Source: Thermoplasmata archaeon
GTDB lineage: Archaea; Thermoplasmatota; Thermoplasmata; Lutacidiplasmatales; UBA184
Assembly: GCA_050011075.1 (NCBI GenBank)
Contig: JBEKJT010000002.1
Location: 1-32,913, forward strand
DNA length: 32,913 nt
Direction: 5' to 3'
Made by a program: the position numbers and the translations under genes. This document shows, piece by piece, positions 23,365 to 32,109 of the stretch. The number at the start of each line of letters is the position of its first letter. Position 1 is the stretch's first letter. The notes under the pieces were generated by a model. The model did not search any database and was not told the DNA's origin. It worked only from the letters and a program-made list of their open reading frames with translations.

Positions 23365-24336
23365 ATGCATCGGACCCACAGCGCGCGTCGGAGCCCCGTC
23401 TCCCAGCCGCGGCTCGACCGGACCGCCCGGCTCGGCTCGGAGAAGGGACACCGCCGCTGGCGTCGTCGCGGACGGCGGGGCCAGGTCGCCCCGGTGGCGA
23501 CAATCCTCGGTCTCCTCTTGGTCGTGACGTTCATCGCGAACTACCTTACGACCACGCTCCCGGGCCAGATGTCGGTCAACGACCTCAACCACGAGGTCCA
23601 AGTGGAGAACCAGGTCGGGAAGCTTTCCGCGCTGCTTCAGGCGGTCTCGCTGACCGGAACCCAGGGCGCCCAGGTCATCCAGCCGATCTCGCTCGGGACG
23701 CTCGCCGCGCCGCCGTTCGCGGCGGCCGACTACTCCGTCCTCTCGCCCGGGAACCTGACCGGGAGGCTGACGGTCAGCTTCTCGGTGACCGGACCGGGGC
23801 CGACCGTCCACAAGTACACGAACCTCGGCGTGCCCGGGGGCTCGCTGCTCGTCCACCTCGCGAACACCTACGCTACGGCGGCGGACGTGGCGTACGACCA
23901 AGGGGCCGTCATTTACGCCCAACCCGCCGGCTATCCGATCCTGGTCGACCCGCCGTCGATCACCCTCGTGAACGGAGCCCTTTCGATCTGGGTCCCCTCG
24001 TTCCAGGGGACCGCCCGCACCGAATCCGGGATCGGCACGGCGGTGGTCACGGCGCGTCTCGTCTCGCTCGATGCGCTCTCCTACCCCGTGAACGGGTTCG
24101 CGCTCACGACCGGCTCCACGGTCTGGGTCAACGTCAGCACTCCGTACCCGGCGGTCTGGACGAACTTCCTCAACGCGATCACGCCGACGAGCGTGTCCCC
24201 GACCTGTACGGGCGTGAGGAACGTCTGTTCGAGCTCGTACCAGTCGAGCGGTCCCTCCGCCCTCGTCTCGATCGCGATCCCTTCCGTGACCTCGCTCTCG
24301 ATCGATTACGCGACCTTCGCGGTCGCGTTCGGTTAG
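23365..24336 (+). CDS. hypothetical surface protein with archaeal class III (type IV pilin-like) signal peptide
   Basis: A basic N-terminus is followed by RRGQ-VAPVATILGLLLVVTFIANYL, which resembles the archaeal prepilin/DUF1628-type motif. The rest is beta-rich and Thr/Ser/Val-rich. Confidence 0.55.
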   Translation: MHRTHSARRSPVSQPRLDRTARLGSEKGHRRWRRRGRRGQVAPVATILGLLLVVTFIANYLTTTLPGQMSVNDLNHEVQVENQVGKLSALLQAVSLTGTQGAQVIQPISLGTLAAPPFAAADYSVLSPGNLTGRLTVSFSVTGPGPTVHKYTNLGVPGGSLLVHLANTYATAADVAYDQGAVIYAQPAGYPILVDPPSITLVNGALSIWVPSFQGTARTESGIGTAVVTARLVSLDALSYPVNGFALTTGSTVWVNVSTPYPAVWTNFLNAITPTSVSPTCTGVRNVCSSSYQSSGPSALVSIAIPSVTSLSIDYATFAVAFG

Positions 24337-24692
24337 TCCCGCGTCGGCCGGGGGCGCATCGACCGCAACCAGGCCTTGGCTCCGACCAGGGTTCCCCACG
24401 TTCGTCGGGTCGCCAGTCTCAGGTCCGGACCGGTCCGGCCCGCGACCGTCCAGGCCGTGCGTGCGGTCCGGACATGGAGGTGCCCGACCTCGACGATCGC
24501 CCGTCGCCCGTCGGAGCGTACCAGCCGGAACGTCAGGTTCCCGTGGCCCGACCGGTCGAGCCGCTCGCGTAGCAGGGCCTCCCAGTCTCGGGAGAACGAG
24601 GGAAAGTGTTCCCCCGCTACCTCGAGGCCGAGGTAGCGGGGACGAAGGGGTCTCGGCCTATCGGACGAGGTCGATGACTTCCTCGGACTCAC
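24333..24692 (-). CDS. rnp2: RNase P protein component 2 (Pop5-like)
   Basis: 119 aa. LRPRYLGLEV near the N-terminus and RRTWGTLVGAKAWL near the C-terminus parallel the archaeal Pop5 motifs (KRYIAFKV / GVSGTIKRLK). GTG start overlaps the ftsZ 3' end by 35 nt. Confidence 0.6.
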   Translation of the reverse strand: MSPRKSSTSSDRPRPLRPRYLGLEVAGEHFPSFSRDWEALLRERLDRSGHGNLTFRLVRSDGRRAIVEVGHLHVRTARTAWTVAGRTGPDLRLATRRTWGTLVGAKAWLRSMRPRPTRD

Positions 24693-25791
24693 CGGCCGCG
24701 TAGCCTCCCTTCTGTCCGAGAAGGCTCTGGGCGCGGACCCCCGTGATGATGAGGAGCACCTTGATGGTGTTCTCCATGTCGGGGGAGTTCTCGACCGAGC
24801 AGCCCCAGATGATGCGGGCGCGCTTCGAGATCTTGCCGCCGACGAGCGCGGCGGCCTTTTCGGCCTCGCTGACCGTCATCGTCGGACCGCCGATCACGCG
24901 GACGAGCGCGCCGGTAGCGTCCTTCAGTTCGACCGAGCCGAGGAGCGGCGACGTGAGGGCCTCCGTGACCGCTTCGGTGACGCGGTCCGTGGCGCTCTCG
25001 CTCTCGCCGAGCCCGATGAGGGCGACCCCGCCGTCCTTCATGACGGTGAGGATGTCGGCGTAGTCGAGGTTGACGAGGCCGGGCTTCGTCACGATCTCGG
25101 TGATCCCCTTGATCGCGGTCATCAGGACCGCATCCGCGAGCTTGAAGGCGGAGTCGAGCGGCATGCGGGGGACGAGCTCGAGGAGCTTGTCGTTCTGGAT
25201 GACGATCGTCGTGTCGCAGACGCGGCGCAGGCGCTCGAGGCCATCACGGGCCTGTTCCATACGGGCCGTGCCTTCGCCCGAGAACGGCAGCGTGACGACG
25301 CCCATCGTGAGCGCGCCGGCTTCCTTCGCGATCCGGGCGACCAAGTGGGCGGAGCCGGTACCGGTTCCGCCGCCCATGCCGGCGGTGATGAAGACGATGT
25401 GCGCACCGTTCAGAAACTGGCGCAGCTCTTCCTCGTTCTCGCGGGCCGCCTCTTCCCCGATCTCGGGGCGGGCGCCGGCGCCGAGGCCCTTCGTGGCCCT
25501 TCGGCCGATGAGGATCTTCCGGGGAGAGTGGATGGTGAGGAGATGTTTCGCATCCGTGTTGATGGCGCACATCTCGGCACCCTGGATGCCCTCGTCGACG
25601 CACCGGTTGATGGTGTTCGAGCCTCCACCGCCGCAACCGACAATCCGGATGTTGACCCGGAGGGTCTCCGCCAGCTTCGCGAGCTCGGCATCGTCCGAGC
25701 TAGCGTAGGCGGGCGCGGCCGGCTTCTTCTCCTCGACCAGGGCCTGGTTCTCCTGGTGCTTCGCAATCGCTTCCTGGATGATGGACTTCAT
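24658..25791 (-). CDS. ftsZ: cell division protein FtsZ
   Basis: GCGGGGSNTIN, tubulin signature GMGGGTGTGS, and NTDAKHL. ATG 25791 is preceded by GAGGA 7 nt upstream. The 24 codons upstream in ORF 24658..25863 contain the putative TATA box. Confidence 0.95.
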   Translation of the reverse strand: MKSIIQEAIAKHQENQALVEEKKPAAPAYASSDDAELAKLAETLRVNIRIVGCGGGGSNTINRCVDEGIQGAEMCAINTDAKHLLTIHSPRKILIGRRATKGLGAGARPEIGEEAARENEEELRQFLNGAHIVFITAGMGGGTGTGSAHLVARIAKEAGALTMGVVTLPFSGEGTARMEQARDGLERLRRVCDTTIVIQNDKLLELVPRMPLDSAFKLADAVLMTAIKGITEIVTKPGLVNLDYADILTVMKDGGVALIGLGESESATDRVTEAVTEALTSPLLGSVELKDATGALVRVIGGPTMTVSEAEKAAALVGGKISKRARIIWGCSVENSPDMENTIKVLLIITGVRAQSLLGQKGGYAAGESEEVIDLVR

Positions 25792-25860
25792 CGGTATTTC
25801 CTCGCTTCCGTTTGTCAGACGAGCGTCATACGCTCCGAGGTAGCACTCTTGAGATTCGTA

Positions 25861-25866
25861 CATAAA
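25861..25866 (-). promoter_or_regulatory. TATA-like box (TTTATG on minus strand) for ftsZ, ~72 nt upstream of ATG 25791
   Basis: Here a ~45-nt leader with a GAGGA Shine-Dalgarno is implied, unlike most host genes. It lies 6 nt from the left 21-bp repeat. Confidence 0.3.
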
Positions 25867-25871
25867 CGTTT

Positions 25872-25892
25872 GCGTTTAGCGGAACTGTAACG
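25872..25892 (+). repeat. left copy of 21-bp direct repeat GCGTTTAGCGGAACTGTAACG
   Basis: Checked base by base against 31321-31341. Lies 12 nt from the transposase stop codon. Confidence 0.95.
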
Positions 25893-25903
25893 TAATCGCG
25901 GCT

Positions 25904-27121
25904 TCACGACGCTCGCGATTCGGTCGTAACAACTCGCGGCTTGCTCGCCTTTTCGATGATTCGCTTCCACCGGAATCCGTCGCCGACCGGGATCCCGGCC
26001 GCTTCGCCCGGCGTCATGCCGAGTGCCTGGTGTTCCCGCACGAGGTTGTAGTGGACCCGGAGGCCTTCGGCAAGAGTGACGGTCCCGGGTTCGCCATCAA
26101 ATCCTCGCATGACCTTGAACCGTTCCTTCTCGGTGCCATGAAATCGCTCGACTCGGTTGTTGGAATCCTTGGCCCGGATGCTGGGGACCCTTCGATGGGG
26201 GTTGAACCGTCCGCCACGGACGAATCTCGGGTCATCCGATGGAGTGGCCTTCCGTCCGAGTTCCTTTCCAACCGCGGCCGGGTAGGCCTGCATCCCGTCC
26301 GTGAGTACGTCCACAGGACGGTCGGGAGTGACCGCCTTCGCCTTTCGAATCGGGGCGCGGGTGTTGGCGAGACCCCGGTCCTCGCTGACGTGCGTGGCGA
26401 GCAGGAACCGGGTCTCGTGGTCGAGTACGTTCCAAAGGTACTCGTTCTTCCCGTTGACATTCACGACCGTCTCGTCGATGTGCCAGCGGTCGGAGGTCCG
26501 CGCTCCTTGCGCGTCCATCCATTCGGCGGCGAGCTTCGAGTAGTGGACGATCCATCGGAAGACCGTCATGTGCGATACGCGGAGCCGCTCGACCTGTTCC
26601 AGATGCTCTCTGACCTTTCGGACGCTCATGCCTCGGAAATAGAGATCGAGCGCACGAGCGATGTTGGTCGGGTCAACGCGGCGCTTGGCGAAGCCTTCGC
26701 AACCAACGAAGCGCCTACCACACGACTTACAGACATAGGTCTGGACATCGCCGCTTTTGTTGTGACGCATCCCCCGGCTCGCCACTTGTTTGGAATGGCA
26801 CTTATCGCATCGGACACTGAGCTCGGCCACGACAGGGGCGGACTCGTCGAAGCCGATCTTGTAACGGACGGCGAGAATGTGAACGCACGACATCGATGTC
26901 GCGACAAAGAAGCGGCAGTCGCAGGACCAGCTCGCGCCCGACTCCACGACATGGTGGAACATGCCCGGTGCGCTCTGCGAACAGACGGCAAATCTCCCTG
27001 GCTCGGGGGCGGTGATCTGGTCCCCACGTGCAACAATGGCGAGAGCCGGAGTGCGCTGGTCCGCCCAGGCGTGTGCCTTCCACCACTCGGCCCCGGGTGT
27101 CGGTTCCGCGACATCGGTCAT
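25904..27121 (-). CDS. IS6-family (IS240/IS26-like) DDE transposase with N-terminal SWIM zinc finger and zinc ribbon
   Basis: ATG 27121 within ORF 25904..27478, with GGAGGG 8 nt upstream. DDE motifs WHIDETVVNVNGKNEYLW, VLTDGMQAY and SNNRVERFHGTEKERFKVMRGF. SWIM CDCRFFVATSMSCVH. Ribbon CDKC...(21)...CKSC. Confidence 0.85.
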   Translation of the reverse strand: MTDVAEPTPGAEWWKAHAWADQRTPALAIVARGDQITAPEPGRFAVCSQSAPGMFHHVVESGASWSCDCRFFVATSMSCVHILAVRYKIGFDESAPVVAELSVRCDKCHSKQVASRGMRHNKSGDVQTYVCKSCGRRFVGCEGFAKRRVDPTNIARALDLYFRGMSVRKVREHLEQVERLRVSHMTVFRWIVHYSKLAAEWMDAQGARTSDRWHIDETVVNVNGKNEYLWNVLDHETRFLLATHVSEDRGLANTRAPIRKAKAVTPDRPVDVLTDGMQAYPAAVGKELGRKATPSDDPRFVRGGRFNPHRRVPSIRAKDSNNRVERFHGTEKERFKVMRGFDGEPGTVTLAEGLRVHYNLVREHQALGMTPGEAAGIPVGDGFRWKRIIEKASKPRVVTTESRAS

Positions 27122-27140
27122 GTTCTGTGCCCTCCAAGTA

Positions 27141-27158
27141 TAGGCTATGTATAGCCTA
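27141..27158. promoter_or_regulatory. perfect 8-2-8 palindrome TAGGCTAT-GT-ATAGCCTA between the transposase TATA box and its SD (operator-like)
   Basis: Read directly. It lies 20-37 nt upstream of the transposase ATG, in the divergent region shared with the AbrB-like gene. Confidence 0.4.
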
Positions 27159-27173
27159 CATCGCCGAACGTAC

Positions 27174-27179
27174 TTATAC
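27174..27179 (-). promoter_or_regulatory. TATA box (TATAAG on minus strand) for the transposase
   Basis: ~55 nt upstream of ATG 27121. The predicted transcription start falls inside the 27141-27158 palindrome. Confidence 0.35.
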
Positions 27180-27254
27180 GTATCGGCTAATTTCATGCCT
27201 ATCTCGAGGCTACAGTTATCGGCTCGGCCATCGATAAACATCAGGGGAGTACTT

Positions 27255-27458
27255 ATGCCCGGAACCTTTCGCTCGGCGGTGCTCTTAGTGAACGACGCGT
27301 CCGATTCAGTTCGGACTACGATTCCCGGGGGCGTAGCGGAGATTCTCGGAGCGGTTCCGGGGTCAACCCTCGTATGGTCAGTCGATCTCAAAGGCGGCCT
27401 AGTGACCGTTTCGGTCGAACCCAATCCGCGAAGACGTAACGAGTCAGCCCGGACTTGA
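27255..27458 (+). CDS. AbrB/SpoVT/MazE-family DNA-binding protein (67 aa)
   Basis: Internal ATG of ORF 27147..27458, with GGGGAG 7 nt upstream. SVRTTIPGGVAEILGAVPGSTLVWSVD fits the swapped-hairpin AbrB motif. Confidence 0.6.
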   Translation: MPGTFRSAVLLVNDASDSVRTTIPGGVAEILGAVPGSTLVWSVDLKGGLVTVSVEPNPRRRNESART

Positions 27459-27759
27459 AAGGGACTCGATACAACCAACCGCCACCGGCTTGACCGTCAT
27501 TACCATCACGCAGCGCCGTTCGTGTCGCCATCCTTCTGGACTCTGGAAGAGAGCTTAGACTGTCGGGGGAGAGTCGCAAGTGAGATACCCGTGCGTGGCT
27601 TCTCCTCTACGAATGAGACGCAATCGCGTCGAATCGCTCGATGTAGAGGCTTTGCCGGTTTCCGGGAATCGGCGGGCGACCCTACGACCGAGGCGCGTCC
27701 AAGTGCCGCTCAGCTGCGGTGCGACGCTGGGTGGGGTGCGTACATGATTTTCCCGGAAG

Positions 27760-28065
27760 ATGACCCACGAATTGACTCGGATTAGTAAGAAGGCCGGGAC
27801 CCTCGATGTACTTGTCTCGCTCTACACCGAGGGAGAGCTCGGGATGTCGGGTTTATACCGGATGATTCACTTAGATCGTGGTACGATCTCCAGTGCCGTC
27901 GTACTGCTGAAGAGCCTCAACCTCGTAACGCTTCGGAAAGGGGAATTATTCCCCTACGCGCAGACGGTAGCACTCACCGCGCTTGGCCGAAGACTGATTC
28001 GTAGACCAGTGTTTGAATGGCCATCGATCCTATTCGAGAATGAGGTCGGAGGCACCCGACCGTAG
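27760..28065 (+). CDS. small winged-helix DNA-binding protein (101 aa)
   Basis: ORF 27760..28065. LDVLVSLYTEGELGMSGLYRMIHLDRGTISSAVVLLKSLNLVTL has an ArsR/MarR-like helix-turn-helix-wing pattern. Confidence 0.5.
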   Translation: MTHELTRISKKAGTLDVLVSLYTEGELGMSGLYRMIHLDRGTISSAVVLLKSLNLVTLRKGELFPYAQTVALTALGRRLIRRPVFEWPSILFENEVGGTRP

Positions 28066-28322
28066 TCGTCTACATCGCACGAGCGAAGACATACTTCGGG
28101 TCAGGACCTAGCAACATTGTCTGGGTCAAAGCCACCAAGAAAGTTCCGGTGCCGACTGCTCGAGAGGTCGCCGCGTTGGTTGCCCCACTTGCTGAACGTC
28201 TCTCCGCCATTCTGCGATATCGCGCCGGCGGTTCGTCTGTCACTTCGACTAATCGATTGATAATCAGTTGAAGGGGTTATGAGGGCGGCTTTACACCGTC
28301 CGACCGATCGATTCGTTCATCC

Positions 28323-28844
28323 CTAACTTACCGTAGCTGTTAGGAACCCGTCGTACGTTCCCGAGGTTACGGGTACGCTCATACAGAACGGGCTGATGGG
28401 GTTGGTCGTGTTGGTGTCCGAGTTCAGGTTGTTGCAGGCGAAGGGATTACCTAGTGTGCCGGCTCCCTTTTCGCCATAGAACGCGTCACCCGAAACGGTC
28501 CACTTAGAGAACGAGTAGCCTTGAGCCGAGGTGTCGGTGGTCGTGTAGGTACACAACGTCTGATCGCAGGAGTCAACTTCTACGGACGCTTGGTCGTTGC
28601 AGACGGTCGATCCTGCAACCACAATCTTGGAGTTTGTGCAGCTGTAGGTTATGTAATCTCCAGCTAGCATTGCAGTGCGGAATGTCGCACCGCCCTGCGA
28701 TGCCGTGTGCGCAACCCCGATTGCTGCCATTCCCATCACCGTCACTGCCAAGAGAATCAGCACGAAAGTGCCAATCCCTCTGTTCAATCCCCCTACTCTA
28801 GTCGCTTTCGCTCTTGCATCTACCCAGGCACGACAACCTCTCAT
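28323..28844 (-). CDS. Cys-rich secreted protein with class III (pilin-like) signal peptide
   Basis: ATG 28844 within ORF 28323..29264. LNRG-IGTFVLILLAVTVMGMAAIGV is followed by a 130-aa Thr/Ser-rich domain with 8 Cys. The upstream part of the track ORF overlaps the permease gene. Confidence 0.5.
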   Translation of the reverse strand: MRGCRAWVDARAKATRVGGLNRGIGTFVLILLAVTVMGMAAIGVAHTASQGGATFRTAMLAGDYITYSCTNSKIVVAGSTVCNDQASVEVDSCDQTLCTYTTTDTSAQGYSFSKWTVSGDAFYGEKGAGTLGNPFACNNLNSDTNTTNPISPFCMSVPVTSGTYDGFLTATVS

Positions 28845-28968
28845 GGCCCCTCCAAGAGAAATCTTCGTTGTGGTTCTTAACCACTCGGCGGAAACATCCT
28901 TGCCGACAATCCCACCATCGTGTTTTCCGCGCGCGAAAAGTGCCGCAACGATGTATCTCGCTCGTCCG

Positions 28969-29967
28969 TCATCGCTCAAAGCGTTGTCGGCGCGCAAGGC
29001 CATCGCAGACCAGCGCGATGGCAAATCCAAGGACGACCATCGCGAGGAGTGGAAACATGTACATCCACCAATAGTCGAAGATGCCGGGTAAACCGAACCC
29101 TTCGCACGCTCCGAATCCCAACAGGTACCCCCACTCGGGGAACGAAGCCGACGGAAGCGGCGAGGCAAATCCGAGGACGGGCGTTGTGTAGTAACCCCCG
29201 ACCGCTCTCCCGCAGCTGGAAACCCAGGGATAGATGGACAAGAAGAAGAAAATCGGCGCCACATCGATTGGTATCTGCGCGAAAACCGGGCCCATGGAGT
29301 TGGGCAAGATGTGCCTAGTCAAGATCTGTTGCGAGTTCGCTCCTGCGGCTCGCGCCGCTTCCACATACCGTTCATGGCTGATGAACCGAGCCCTCTCCCG
29401 GACCGCGCGACCCATCGTGGGCCAGAGGAGGAGTCCGAACACGACGACAAAGGTGGGAAGGCTCACCGCACCCGGAATGGCACCGATTCCGGCGAACACC
29501 ACCGGGACAATGATGTACGATGGCACCGAGCCGATCGAGTCCCCGACGAACACAACTACTCCATCGACGAGACCCCCCTCGTGAAGGCCGGCGCTTGCTC
29601 CGAGGAAGAGCGCAAGGAGAGTGTCGATTGCCAGAATGCTCGCGACGATAGCGAGGTCCCACGGGGTGGCCCTCCAGACGGCGTGGAACAAAACCGTACC
29701 AAACCCCGGCAACACTCCGAACGGGTGGACCAGCGATGGTCCGATTGGAGAGAAGGGAGCAACCCATGCCGGATTCGTTGGCAGGGTGGTGAGCGACTTA
29801 CGAAAGACAACAAGCGCGCTGCCCGCAGCAACGAGGTACATCCCCAGGAGCCCTGCCCCGACCCAAAATGCGATGCCGAGAGGCCTTCGTGCCAAACGGG
29901 CTCGAAGAGTGGGCCGGAATCTACGGATTCGTTCCCTTGCAGCAGGAACGTCAGAGACACTGCTCAT
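28969..29967 (-). CDS. ABC transporter permease, DppC/OppC-like
   Basis: 332 aa, multi-TM, with the EAA-type loop YVEAARAAGANSQQILTRHILPN. The ATG overlaps the upstream permease stop (ATGA). Confidence 0.85.
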   Translation of the reverse strand: MSSVSDVPAARERIRRFRPTLRARLARRPLGIAFWVGAGLLGMYLVAAGSALVVFRKSLTTLPTNPAWVAPFSPIGPSLVHPFGVLPGFGTVLFHAVWRATPWDLAIVASILAIDTLLALFLGASAGLHEGGLVDGVVVFVGDSIGSVPSYIIVPVVFAGIGAIPGAVSLPTFVVVFGLLLWPTMGRAVRERARFISHERYVEAARAAGANSQQILTRHILPNSMGPVFAQIPIDVAPIFFFLSIYPWVSSCGRAVGGYYTTPVLGFASPLPSASFPEWGYLLGFGACEGFGLPGIFDYWWMYMFPLLAMVVLGFAIALVCDGLARRQRFER

Positions 29968-31148
29968 CGAGCTGCCGCTCCTCGGGGGTCGAGCCGAATC
30001 GCGATGAGGTCGACTATGAAGGTCCAGACCAGGACTACGACGGCGACTAGGAAGACGATGGCTTCAACCATCGGAAGGTTGCCCAAGTTGCGGAAGTAGA
30101 GGACCCCGAAGCCGCTCTGATCGAGGAAGGCGGCTTCGACTGCGAAGAGGATTCCGAGAAACTCTGGAATCGTGAGCGCGAAGATGAGGAAAAACGAAGG
30201 GGTTAGGCGCTTCGCCGCGTGCCGCCACAGCAACGTCCGCTCAGAGATCCCGCGCGACCGGGCCCCGACGATGTACGGTTCTTCCCGAACCGATCGCACC
30301 ACGCTCGACGCATGGCGGAAAAAGATTGCGACGTAGGCGACCGCAACTATCAACGCCTGGATGAGCGTCTTGACCAGCACGATCTCGCCGATCGCCCACG
30401 CGTGATGGATCGCGACGTCAATCAACGGGAACCCAGTGGGCTGGGTGACCGCTTGTCCGACGATCCAATTCGGGTATCCGCCGTGGAGGACAAACCAACC
30501 AATTGATGGCAAAAGGCCGAGCGTGGGAATATCTCCGTCGAAGATGTGCTCGAAGGGAAAGAAGAGGGCATTCGCGACCCAGATCCCCACGACAAACACG
30601 GGGAGCAAAGCTCCTAGTAGGGTGAGATAGCGTGCGGGCGCGTCCGATCCGGGCCGGCGACTCCATCCCGCCATGAGGCTGACTGGATAAGCCAGTCCGG
30701 CCGCCATCGGCAGGGCGAAGAGTGAAACTTGGATGGAAGGGGGGACGTACGCCGCAAAATACTGAGCCCATGAGGTATAGATTTCAAACCTCGGCCCGTA
30801 AACTGGGCTCGACCAGTTGCCGGCGAAATTGTTGAGCACGAAGTAGTAGAAACCCTCCGTGAACCCGCGGAAGTAACCGAGAGTACCTCCAGTCGCCCCG
30901 TGCTCGTAAGCGGCGGGAAGGTTGAGTACCGCGTAGAGAATGAACAGAATGAAAACGAGCTGAACTGGAATCAGCGACGCCCGTCTTATCGCGAAGACCC
31001 AGAACGCCGAACGCCGACTCCACCAACCCTTCTGAATAGGCCAAGGGCCCGTACCCGCCATCCATCGGAGTACTCCCGTGCCGGGAACTCTTCCAGGTCG
31101 GCTCCCGGGAGGGGGGGCGGACTGCCGGACGGGAACCTCGGCGCCCAT
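29964..31148 (-). CDS. ABC transporter permease, DppB/OppB-like
   Basis: Multi-TM with the loop EPYIVGARSRGISERTLLWRHAAK. ATG at 31148, with an in-frame alternative at 31061. Confidence 0.8.
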   Translation of the reverse strand: MGAEVPVRQSAPPPGSRPGRVPGTGVLRWMAGTGPWPIQKGWWSRRSAFWVFAIRRASLIPVQLVFILFILYAVLNLPAAYEHGATGGTLGYFRGFTEGFYYFVLNNFAGNWSSPVYGPRFEIYTSWAQYFAAYVPPSIQVSLFALPMAAGLAYPVSLMAGWSRRPGSDAPARYLTLLGALLPVFVVGIWVANALFFPFEHIFDGDIPTLGLLPSIGWFVLHGGYPNWIVGQAVTQPTGFPLIDVAIHHAWAIGEIVLVKTLIQALIVAVAYVAIFFRHASSVVRSVREEPYIVGARSRGISERTLLWRHAAKRLTPSFFLIFALTIPEFLGILFAVEAAFLDQSGFGVLYFRNLGNLPMVEAIVFLVAVVVLVWTFIVDLIAIRLDPRGAAAR

Positions 31149-31309
31149 CGAAGGAGGAAAATCCTGGGGTCGGACGCCCCGCTCGGGATCTTCTTTGAAC
31201 CCCCCTAAGGAACAGGAGGTTACATCAGCATATGGCCGCAGAGGAACCTGTTCTTTCCTGAGCCGCGGCCCGTTACACTTGCCTTCGAGTCGGCGAAGAG
31301 CCCCGAAAA

Positions 31310-31340
31310 GTTACAGAACCGCGTTTAGCGGAACTGTAAC
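31310..31340. repeat. 12-7-12 imperfect palindrome (GTTACAGAACCG-CGTTTAG-CGGAACTGTAAC)
   Basis: The arms are complementary at 10/12 positions (central AA/AA mismatch). The right arm and spacer belong to the 21-bp repeat. Confidence 0.8.
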
Positions 31341-31341
31341 G
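31321..31341 (+). repeat. right copy of 21-bp direct repeat GCGTTTAGCGGAACTGTAACG
   Basis: Identical to 25872-25892. The next 20 nt still match the left copy at 13/20 positions. Confidence 0.95.
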
Positions 31342-31443
31342 GTATCGTGACCTCATGACCCCGTGGTCTTCGTTGTTCCACATGGGGACCGGCTCGAACG
31401 GTGACGAAGTGTTCTTGGGGTGGGGCCGGGTCGGGAGAATGCG

Positions 31444-32109
31444 ATGAAAGTCCTCCTGTTCGGCGCCTCGGGGATGGTGGGGCGGGGGGTTCTCCGGGAG
31501 TGCCTGCTCGACCCCGGGGTGGAGTCCGTCCTTTCGGTGGGAAGGAGCGCTACCGGGCAGCGGTCGGAGAAGCTCGAGGAGGTCGTCCTGTCGGACCTCG
31601 CGAACCTCACACCGATTGAGGACCGTCTGCGGGGGCACGATGCCTGCTTCTTCTGCCTCGGCGTCTCCTCCGCCGGGATGTCCGAGGCGGACTACCGGCG
31701 CACGACGTTCGACCTCACGGTGGCAGTGGCTCAGACACTGTCCCGGCTGAACCCGGCCCTGACGTTCGCATACATCTCGGGGGCCGGAACGGACAGTTCC
31801 GAGCACGGTCGAACCATGTGGGCCCGGGTGAAGGGGCAGACCGAGAACGCGCTCTTGCGGCTCCCGTTCCAAGGGGCCTACATGTTCCGCCCCGGGATCA
31901 TCCAGCCACTGCACGGGATCAAGTCCAAGACCCGGGGGTACCGGATCGGATACGTGGTGATGGGACCATTCCTTCCGCTGGTCAAGGCGCTCTTCCCGAA
32001 CGCGATCACCACGACCGAGCGGGTCGGGCGAGCCATGATCCGGGTGGCGAGGGAAGGAGCGCCGACGCCCCTTCTGGGGACTCGAGAGATCAATCGCCTC
32101 GGAACGTAG
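31444..32109 (+). CDS. NAD(P)-binding atypical SDR / NmrA-like protein
   Basis: ATG 31444 with GGGAG upstream. MKVLLFGASGMVGRGVL is a Rossmann motif. 221 aa. Confidence 0.8.
   Translation: MKVLLFGASGMVGRGVLRECLLDPGVESVLSVGRSATGQRSEKLEEVVLSDLANLTPIEDRLRGHDACFFCLGVSSAGMSEADYRRTTFDLTVAVAQTLSRLNPALTFAYISGAGTDSSEHGRTMWARVKGQTENALLRLPFQGAYMFRPGIIQPLHGIKSKTRGYRIGYVVMGPFLPLVKALFPNAITTTERVGRAMIRVAREGAPTPLLGTREINRLGT

Follow-up and report, generated by a model that had tools for sequence, protein, structure and literature searches.

A probable site-specific cargo transposon with an IS6-like transposase directly upstream of ftsZ in a Thermoplasmata archaeon

We analysed an island of lower G+C directly upstream of ftsZ in a 32,913-nucleotide contig portion from a Thermoplasmata archaeon of the order Lutacidiplasmatales (GenBank assembly GCA_050011075.1, contig JBEKJT010000002.1, positions 1 to 32,913; this whole stretch is called the window). 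Positions 25881-31320 very probably constitute one 5,440-bp DDE transposon, a member of a site- and orientation-specific family, lying beside the end of an older truncated relative. Cargo transposons specific for site and orientation are a known kind; this one, with its IS6-like transposase, is apparently an undescribed variant. Related elements occupy the same position and orientation upstream of ftsZ in other species, eight of the elements, that of the window included, being flanked by perfect 9-bp duplications.

Ends, target duplication and transposase

The 21-mer GCGTTTAGCGGAACTGTAACG occurs twice without mismatch, at 25872-25892 and 31321-31341, both on the plus strand. No further match was found in the window with up to three mismatches allowed, and none was expected from 100 shuffles. 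Between the copies the composition changes: in 500-nt windows G+C is 0.55-0.63 from ~25500 to ~31500 versus 0.65-0.77 elsewhere in the window, exact values being 59.3% for the element, 70.5% for the left flank and 67.9% for the right, and G+C at third codon positions (GC3) is 0.60-0.75 in the element genes versus 0.86-0.90 in ftsZ, purH, the DUF7289 gene and the SDR-like gene. Two claims of an initial annotation, an exact direct pair and a lower-G+C, foreign-looking segment (59.3% versus 70.5%), are thus borne out, the first by the mismatch-tolerant search and shuffles, the second by windowed G+C and GC3. The high host G+C fits the ~69% reported for Lutacidiplasmatales (PMC9287336). Neither ARAGORN nor Rfam at gathering thresholds detected in the window a tRNA or other RNA gene that might have served as an integration target.

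The 21-mer is a 9-bp target-site duplication, GCGTTTAGC, followed by 12 bp of transposon end, GGAACTGTAACG. It is read in this way because imperfect similarity between the copies extends rightward only (to 39 nt at 85%, reaching ~60 nt once other element ends are compared), because GTTACAGAACC, at 31310-31320, directly precedes the right copy and is the inverted version of GGAACTGTAAC within the 21-mer, and because the transposase stop codon is only 12 nt from the left copy. On the plus strand the layout is GCGTTTAGC / GGAACTGTAAC ... 5,440 bp ... GTTACAGAACC / GCGTTTAGC / GGAACTGTAACGGTATCG... The initial annotation had proposed a mobile insertion of foreign origin just upstream of the ftsZ promoter, which stands, with the repeat as its single border or attachment sequence, which does not: the 21-mer is not one border unit but the duplication plus 12 bp common to the ends of two elements, and the true borders are inverted repeats at 25881 and 31320 that the annotation lacked. 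The features on which the argument depends are as follows; numbers beginning with L designate other loci in the comparison.

24658..25791, minus strand: ftsZ, 377 aa, starting MKSIIQEA... (Pfam Tubulin and FtsZ_C; the 377-aa call is made on independent contigs)
25792..25871, minus strand: ftsZ promoter and 5' region, from the upstream alignment of 80 relatives
25872..25880, no strand: target-site duplication copy 1 (GCGTTTAGC), beside the inverted-repeat end
25881..25940, plus strand: transposase-proximal end (IRR), from the alignment of ends of the window element, L014, L018, L029, L033, L045, L054, L056 and L074
25904..27121, minus strand: transposase, 405 aa (Pfam DDE_Tnp_IS240, NCBIfam IS6)
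31261..31320, minus strand: transposase-distal end (IRL), with homologous left ends in L018, L045, L054, L074, L051 and L085
31321..31329, no strand: target-site duplication copy 2, the identical 9-mer (GCGTTTAGC) beside the other inverted-repeat end
31330..31389, plus strand: IRR-type end left by an older, truncated member of the family; the 12 nt at its tip match the new end exactly, and both motifs are still present but degenerate

The ends are ~60 bp long, imperfectly inverted and two-part, as judged from an alignment of the window element with ten related elements. The tip consensus is GG(T/A)(T/A)CTGTAAC-n4-5-CG(G/C)GGC, and a second TGTAAC-n4-CG(G/C)GGC lies ~45 nt further in. The IRR, which overlaps the 3' end of the transposase gene, has the tip GGAACTGTAAC-n5-CGCGGC and a second TAAC-n4-CGCGGC ~45 nt inward; the reverse complement of the IRL reads GGTTCTGTAAC-TTTT-CGGGGCT ... 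TGTAAC-GGGC-CGCGGCT. The TGTAAC motifs are putative transposase-binding sites. The older end, located next to the SDR gene, carries GGAACTGTAACGG; when its positions 13-60 were compared with nine other IRR ends, the similarity scored z ~4.8 and none of 5000 shuffles did as well.

The transposase combines a SWIM-like CxCx(n)CxH motif (residues 64-85), a zinc ribbon, a helix-turn-helix (HTH) and an IS6-type DDE domain (D216, D275, E325, K332). It matches Pfam PF13610 DDE_Tnp_IS240 with 77.3 bits (cut-off 27). The residues D216, D275 and E325 are invariant in our transposase alignment (A1), as are C79 and H81 of the SWIM signature C67-x-C69-x9-C79-x-H81. The SWIM model PF04434 itself gives 15.3 bits, under its cut-off of 19.6; homologues at 57-61% identity have precomputed PF04434 matches. 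Pfam and NCBIfam recognised no tyrosine or serine recombinase domain in any open reading frame (ORF) of 25872-31341.

Parts of the island were found at 99.9-100% identity in independent contigs or assemblies from six samples, and one contig (L001) covers the entire island with both flanks; the island is therefore not an assembly artefact. Some contigs of the same strain end within the cargo, at ~29630-29670 in two other samples and at 30566 and 30792 in a third. No repeat or unusual sequence is visible at these ends (~29630-29670 and 30566-30792), which strain heterogeneity or a drop in coverage could explain.

Distribution and site specificity

A scan of GTDB species representatives with FtsZ yielded 80 loci, all in Thermoplasmata metagenome-assembled genomes (MAGs) and including Candidatus Lutacidiplasma silvani. 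FtsZ is 93-98% identical to that of the window in these 80 genomes. The gene order downstream of ftsZ (orf119, DUF7289, purH) is conserved, as is the order past the variable part on the other side (polD DP2, o101, HTH protein, cox genes). In 46 species DP2 and ftsZ are separated by as little as 315 bp or by more than 9.4 kb, often with several stacked elements or remnants between them.

Transposases immediately upstream of ftsZ and reading toward it were found in L014, L029, L036, L045 and L054, with 63-85% identity to that of the window and a gap of ~115-160 nt. The transposase of L018 (81%) is followed by one extra gene before the end of the element, in L068 (67%) the distance to ftsZ is 481 nt, and only a fragment is left in L067. 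The gene for the small AbrB-like protein that accompanies the transposase is also present at the ftsZ locus of L018, L036, L045 and L054. Homologous elements at the same position and orientation range from 0.6 to 8.7 kb, and eight of them, the window element and seven others, have a perfect 9-bp duplication with the same ends:

window element, 5.4 kb
L018, 7.6 kb
L045, 7.4 kb
L054, 4.0 kb
L148, 7.3 kb
L149, 8.7 kb
L150, 6.5 kb
L056, 0.8 kb, without transposase

The sequence past the distal 9-mer is not an IS6-type end in L018, L045, L054 and L150. Elements stacked in tandem, with a 9-mer between one end and the next, occur in the window, L074, L149, L104, L108 and L110; in L074 the tandem consists of two small transposase-less elements. 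The flanks of L044 and L045 are 99.7-99.96% identical, and L045 has a 7.4-kb element inserted exactly at TTCC|GCTCTACGC|AAACGTTTATG that L044 is without, a pair of filled and empty site. Among 73 assessable species an IS6-type end stands directly against the 9-mer in 12 and an end of an unrelated, IS5-type element (described below) in 11.

Transposase-less, MITE-like (miniature inverted-repeat transposable element) elements of 0.6-1.0 kb, with family ends and at the same site, were observed at L074:8306-9911, L056:9132-9912, L033:9016-9910 and L085:1123-1951.

The GTDB loci were chosen through ftsZ and therefore cannot test specificity, so two samples independent of ftsZ were used. The first was a scan of metagenomes with the transposase profile (57 loci), in which six distinct elements had enough downstream sequence to judge; in all six (L091, L092, L094, L098, L101 and L140; transposase identity at least 56%, in five at least 63%) ftsZ follows in the same orientation. 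The second came from a protein search and comprised three matches chosen solely for their long contigs, P0020 (72%), P0028 (69%) and P0043 (66%), all 100-113 nt upstream of ftsZ. Thus ftsZ lies downstream in the same orientation in 9 of 9 relatives (56-81% identity). The gap between transposase and ftsZ is 100-156 nt in eight of these; the ninth, L091, has an extra gene between the transposase and the end of the element. The family appears to be found only upstream of ftsZ in Lutacidiplasmatales-like Thermoplasmata, with the transposase reading toward ftsZ.

Pairwise identities of the transposases are uncorrelated with those of the host PurH proteins (Spearman -0.04): the window and L029 share 79% in the transposase and 64% in PurH, the window and L045 67% and 72%. 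Between species the transposase is at least as conserved as PurH, and the DDE residues are invariant. The lack of correlation points to horizontal spread, with elements inserting anew at the one site, and not to one inherited insertion. Relatives with the same genes at this locus had been put forward in the initial annotation as what would speak against a foreign insertion; the transposase/AbrB module is indeed shared, the cargo is not, and the sharing of the module reflects site-specific transposition, not vertical host DNA.

The upstream region of ftsZ is conserved across relatives as ..TTCC-[GCTnnACGC]-AAACGTTTATGTA.., so the reverse complement of GCGTTTAGC with the following GG is host promoter-proximal sequence. 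The ftsZ TATA box, TTTATGTA, is at plus-strand positions 25859-25866, 5 nt from the target duplication, and a Shine-Dalgarno-like GAGG occurs in the 5' region. An end-like ..TTCC adjoins the 9-mer in nearly all relatives, and in the three species whose intervals are shortest (315-390 bp) the sequence there still reads ..CC or ..TTCC, which bears on the interpretation of ..ACAnnTTCC as an element remnant.

We propose the following history. A 9-bp staggered cut in GCGTTTAGC, 5 nt upstream of the ftsZ TATA box, would have led to duplication of the 9-mer. The target would already have abutted an end of an older family member that is now truncated, and this end has its first 12 bp in common with the new one, giving a 21-bp direct repeat; the predicted pre-insertion junction is CATAAACGTTTGCGTTTAGCGGAACTGTAACGGTATCG. 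Each insertion would recreate the arrangement of end, 9-mer and TATA box, so that stacking becomes possible, and site-specific tandem insertions would make the polD(DP2)-ftsZ interval a hypervariable hotspot for cargo. The transposase is probably active at present, and movement may be cut-and-paste or, like that of IS26, replicative. Its targeting may be due to the SWIM domain, the AbrB-like protein or both, and candidates for what is recognised are the resident end-like ..ACAnnTTCC, the promoter itself, or both.

Alternatives and points against a site-specific transposon

It is improbable that the family descends from a single ancient insertion inherited vertically, its differences having arisen by decay, by cargo replacement through homologous recombination between conserved ends and by precise deletions. 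Such descent would suit the presence of the whole clade at one locus in one archaeal order, the ~90% identity of L036 and L045 in both transposase and PurH, as co-inheritance predicts, and the ..TTCC end-like sequence beside the 9-mer in nearly all relatives. It is disfavoured by tandem arrays with repeated 9-mers, which require repeated insertion at the same site; by duplications that are perfect although the ends have diverged; by transposase divergence uncorrelated with host divergence; by near-identical flanks (99.7-99.96%) that differ in presence or absence of the element; by intact DDE residues in a transposase at least as conserved as PurH; and by a second, unrelated transposase family at the same site.

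We give equally little credence to an IS26-style event, in which a ~1.35-kb IS6-like insertion sequence with adjacent DNA (as translocatable unit or cointegrate) joined an existing copy, leaving a pseudo-compound transposon of which one copy was later truncated. The transposase is IS6-like and the two GGAACTGTAACG ends are in direct orientation, and IS6 elements typically leave direct repeats around passenger DNA and can target existing copies (PMC7986276). However, the cargo lies within one pair of inverted ends, the far end (31261-31320) having the same two-part motif, with no second inverted repeat between the transposase module and the cargo; a 9-bp duplication surrounds the whole 5.44 kb, while conservative IS26 targeting makes none; and the same layout (left end, cargo, abrB, transposase, right end) adjoins non-IS6 sequence in L018, L045 and L150. 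No locus holds a second full copy of the element, simple duplication-flanked insertions being all that was seen.

Least probable of all, and very much so, is attP x attB integration over a 21-bp core giving attL and attR: a perfect 21-bp direct repeat at both borders with one-sided partial similarity is as found at attachment sites, but no tyrosine or serine recombinase is encoded by any of the six element genes, the inverted repeats of a DDE transposon stand at the borders, in seven other elements the duplicated stretch comprises only the 9-mer and 2-4 nt that happen to match the end, and the extra 12 bases of the window are explained by the older end, recognisable over ~60 nt.

Several points weigh against a site-specific transposon with an IS6-like transposase as we describe it. 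The NCBIfam IS6 model NF033587 gives 124.4 bits, just under its cut-off of 125. IS6 elements make 8-bp duplications and have 14-bp inverted repeats and lengths of 0.7-0.9 kb, up to 1.7 kb (PMC7986276); a review of the family notes a single member with one passenger gene (PMC7986276), and descriptions of IS6/IS26 give 14-18 bp inverted repeats, no cargo and no target specificity (PMC7986276, PMC6807381). Unlike these, the duplication is 9 bp rather than 8 bp (window, L018, L045, L054, L056, L148, L149, L150), the ends are two-part and ~60 bp rather than 14-18 bp inverted repeats, and six genes in 5,440 bp (4-8.7 kb in relatives) lie inside one inverted-repeat pair. The material consists mostly of MAGs and metagenome contigs, and additional transposase copies elsewhere in the genomes are possible. 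In principle, a precise loss from L044, instead of a gain by L045, could account for the difference between the two. The empty site predicted by the initial annotation (...CATAAACGTTT-GCGTTTAGC-GGAACTGTAACGGTATCG...) equals the pre-insertion state of the transposon model, but no such site was found in this species, all contigs with exact FtsZ, SDR or transposase being of the same island-bearing strain. Nor was the outer end of the older element found between the metallo-beta-lactamase (MBL) gene and polD (in L006 and by comparison with relatives), and no convincing inverted repeat or 9-mer was seen in that stretch.

Cargo, host locus, related systems and implications

The remaining features of the element, and the adjoining host gene, are listed below.

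27122..27254, no strand: divergent control region between the transposase and AbrB-like genes, 47% G+C, with motifs that recur in L018, L054, L098 and L148
27255..27458, plus strand: small AbrB/MazE-like protein, 67 aa, divergently transcribed and conserved as the partner of the transposase
27760..28065, plus strand: winged-helix (MarR-like) protein, 101 aa, cargo or regulator (weak Pfam MarR and HrcA_DNA-bdg)
28323..29003, minus strand: pilin-like protein, 226 aa, membrane-anchored, cargo (ORF and gene call)
28969..29967, minus strand: ABC permease, OppC/NikC-like, 332 aa, cargo (Pfam BPD_transp_1, 4e-16)
29964..31061, minus strand: ABC permease, OppB/NikB-like, 365 aa, cargo (Pfam BPD_transp_1, NCBIfam, gene calls)
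31444..32109, plus strand: SDR/NAD(P)-binding protein, 221 aa, host-like GC3 of 0.86

Homologues of the AbrB-like gene adjoin the transposase in L018, L036, L045, L054, L085, L093, L098, L134, L142 and L143. The 67-aa protein has no Pfam match, and its profile gave insignificant matches only against PDB; a distant homologue, the 58-aa partner in L153, weakly matches Pfam MazE_antitoxin. A moderate AlphaFold model (pLDDT 77) has AbrB-N, Sso7c4, SpoVT and MazE as its dominant Foldseek matches, consistent with one another but all weak (E 0.08-2, TM score ~0.4-0.5); the AbrB-like fold is thus weakly supported. The control region holds TAGGCTA-n3-ATAGCCT palindromes, a TAAGTAC box and TAGCC/TAGGC repeats, all conserved and common to elements of several species; the palindromes and repeats are likely operator sites of the transposase/AbrB module.

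The gene content given by the initial annotation (a transposase, two small DNA-binding proteins, a pilin-like protein and an incomplete ABC transporter) holds. The winged-helix protein has no homologue in related elements. The 226-aa protein has no Pfam or NCBIfam match; its one hydrophobic segment (..NRG/IGTFVLILLAV..) resembles a pilin signal, so that we call it pilin-like. All NCBIfam Opp/Nik C-type models score the OppC/NikC-like permease far below their cut-offs, and the element carries no ABC ATPase or binding protein. Cargo in other elements includes a BglII-like endonuclease, N6 and N4 methyltransferases, DndB, EcoRII-C, Schlafen/AlbA_2 and AAA_15. As to viral origin or carriage, the transposase profile detected no relative in IMG/VR.

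Two suggestions of the initial annotation about the host locus were not upheld. An effect of the insertion on ftsZ expression is not indicated, since the insertion spares the core promoter (TATA box and adjoining sequence are intact) and many species have the same junction. Nor is the SDR-like gene the ancestral neighbour: the conserved neighbour in 46 related species is the gene for the polD large subunit (DP2), an SDR homologue is nearby in only one of 80 relatives (L043), and the SDR and MBL genes belong to the variable DP2-ftsZ interval, where they are not conserved. An ORF start at 25863 (MYESQ...) was considered as the start of ftsZ and rejected; it begins within the TATA box, and relatives and gene calls start at MKSII.

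Further observations concern the ftsZ region. The block AGAGCGTATGACGCTCGTCTGACAAAC (ftsZ strand; window 25809-25836) is virtually invariant in the 80 related genomes, more so than the surrounding promoter. It contains the perfect palindrome GAGCGT-ATG-ACGCTC at 25821-25835, which follows the TATA box at a distance of ~25 nt and may act as an operator where transcription starts or form a hairpin in the 5' untranslated region. A similar inverted repeat, GTCTGACGAAA..TCGTCGGAC, is present in the RHH-ftsZ promoters of other archaea. A 119-aa ORF at 24333-24692 (minus strand), without Pfam match, overlaps the 3' end of ftsZ by 35 nt and has 41-68% identity in nearly all relatives.

Similar junctions extend to more distant homologues of the transposase (51-61% identity). 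In L117, L118, L123, L125, L128, L129 and L131 the element ends ..ACCAGAACC or ..AGACAGAACC, followed by 9 nt and a TATA box, which here belongs to an RHH(CopG)-ftsZ operon in a different archaeal lineage. The arrangement, a CopG-type RHH gene followed by an ftsZ paralogue, resembles the haloarchaeal cdrS-ftsZ2 locus. In L151 the other end of the element adjoins the same kind of site, and in L109 the site precedes a TBP gene. An A+T-rich, TATA-like octamer starts 12-15 nt past the end at 5 of 12 independent non-tandem junctions of the wider family versus 2% of background positions; the remaining seven have no TATA box, so that the pattern holds for part of the wider family only. Coordinates of transposases associated with the RHH-ftsZ operon are L131:7231-8659 and L151:3924-5312.

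The ftsZ site is also used by an unrelated IS5-family transposase, found in L085 (1960-5449), L058 and L065 and as remnants beside IS6-type elements in L018:1910-2254 and L150:3316-4696. It matches Pfam DDE_Tnp_1, with NCBIfam IS5 just under cut-off, and the element has 12-bp inverted repeats GGACGTTGTGCC, a 7-bp duplication (TCTCTAC) and an AbrB-like neighbour. Its N-terminal SWIM domain (PF04434, 19.8 bits; cut-off 19.6) shares 46% identity with that of the window transposase over 46 residues.

Among known systems, the IS6/IS26 group, in particular its distant archaeal branch (ISC774, ISPfu1 and ISH14-type), is closest in the transposase, the DDE domain matching DDE_Tnp_IS240/IS6 with a zinc ribbon and HTH before it. 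The spacing E...K.R after the catalytic E is near a motif reported for archaeal IS6 (PMC6807381). The window ends start GGAACTG and GGTTCTG, with GG and with G at position 7 as in IS6 repeats; conservation extends to ~60 bp and includes a second internal motif copy. Also unlike IS6, the window family has an additional SWIM domain, with an AbrB-like gene as obligatory partner, and it is strictly site- and orientation-specific, apparently with one copy per locus rather than as multicopy direct repeats.

With Tn7 at attTn7, downstream of glmS, the family shares insertion in one orientation at a single safe site by an essential conserved gene, a functional resemblance only, as well as ends with several putative transposase-binding repeats and cargo that is often defence or transport genes. 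Neither ftsZ nor IS6 nor SWIM is mentioned in a preprint on archaeal Tn7-like elements (bioRxiv 10.1101/2025.07.27.667033). Pfam and NCBIfam found no homologue of TnsA, TnsB, TnsC or TniQ/TnsD among the six element genes. In contrast to Tn7, the window family has an IS6-like catalytic protein, duplicates 9 bp instead of 5 bp and inserts upstream of a promoter, not beyond the end of a gene; its tandem stacking suggests that it has no target immunity.

IS30 and IS911 insert beside sequences resembling their own inverted repeats. Likewise, insertions of the window family stand directly against a resident end-like ..ACAnnTTCC, and new elements abut older ends with the duplicated target between them; the transposase families differ, however, the distance to the TATA box is fixed, and two unrelated DDE families share the site. 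The retrotransposon Ty3 integrates at RNA polymerase III start sites through TFIIIB/TBP, and the short, constant spacing between an insertion and a core promoter element is comparable, as an analogy only: the window family is a DNA transposon, its sites have a TATA box in some cases only, and a role of TBP or TFB is not indicated. We found in the literature no SWIM-IS6 archaeal transposon, ftsZ-upstream hotspot or TATA-directed archaeal transposition, with incomplete coverage and as absence of evidence only.

A broader interpretation, which we regard as possible with the balance somewhat against it, is that a guild of archaeal cargo transposons homes to a single fixed position just upstream of the core promoter (BRE, the TFB-recognition element, and TATA box) of cell-division and housekeeping genes, by way of a portable module of SWIM domain and AbrB-like protein on IS6-like and IS5-like cores. 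The targets observed are ftsZ in Lutacidiplasmatales-like Thermoplasmata, the RHH(CopG)-ftsZ operon in other archaea and, in one case, a TBP gene. The portable module may recognise TGTAAC-type motifs, the promoter, or both. If true, the guild would be an archaeal counterpart of attTn7-type homing or of Ty3-like promoter-directed integration, and would explain the hotspot of defence and cargo genes adjacent to ftsZ.

The island is a recent acquisition, and its cargo should therefore not be taken as part of the core metabolism of the organism. Homologous SWIM domains on two unrelated cores at the same site suggest that DNA-targeting modules have been exchanged between transposon families. If the family is truly site-specific, it offers simple delivery of 4-9 kb of cargo to one defined position in an archaeal chromosome, for which two proteins, a DDE transposase and a small AbrB-like protein, apparently suffice. 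It would be a natural model for target choice by a DDE transposase without Tn7-type machinery and a possible starting point for targeted integration tools in archaea. Such transposition would explain the hypervariable polD-ftsZ island, with its restriction-modification, defence-like and transport genes, across a widespread order of soil and peat archaea.

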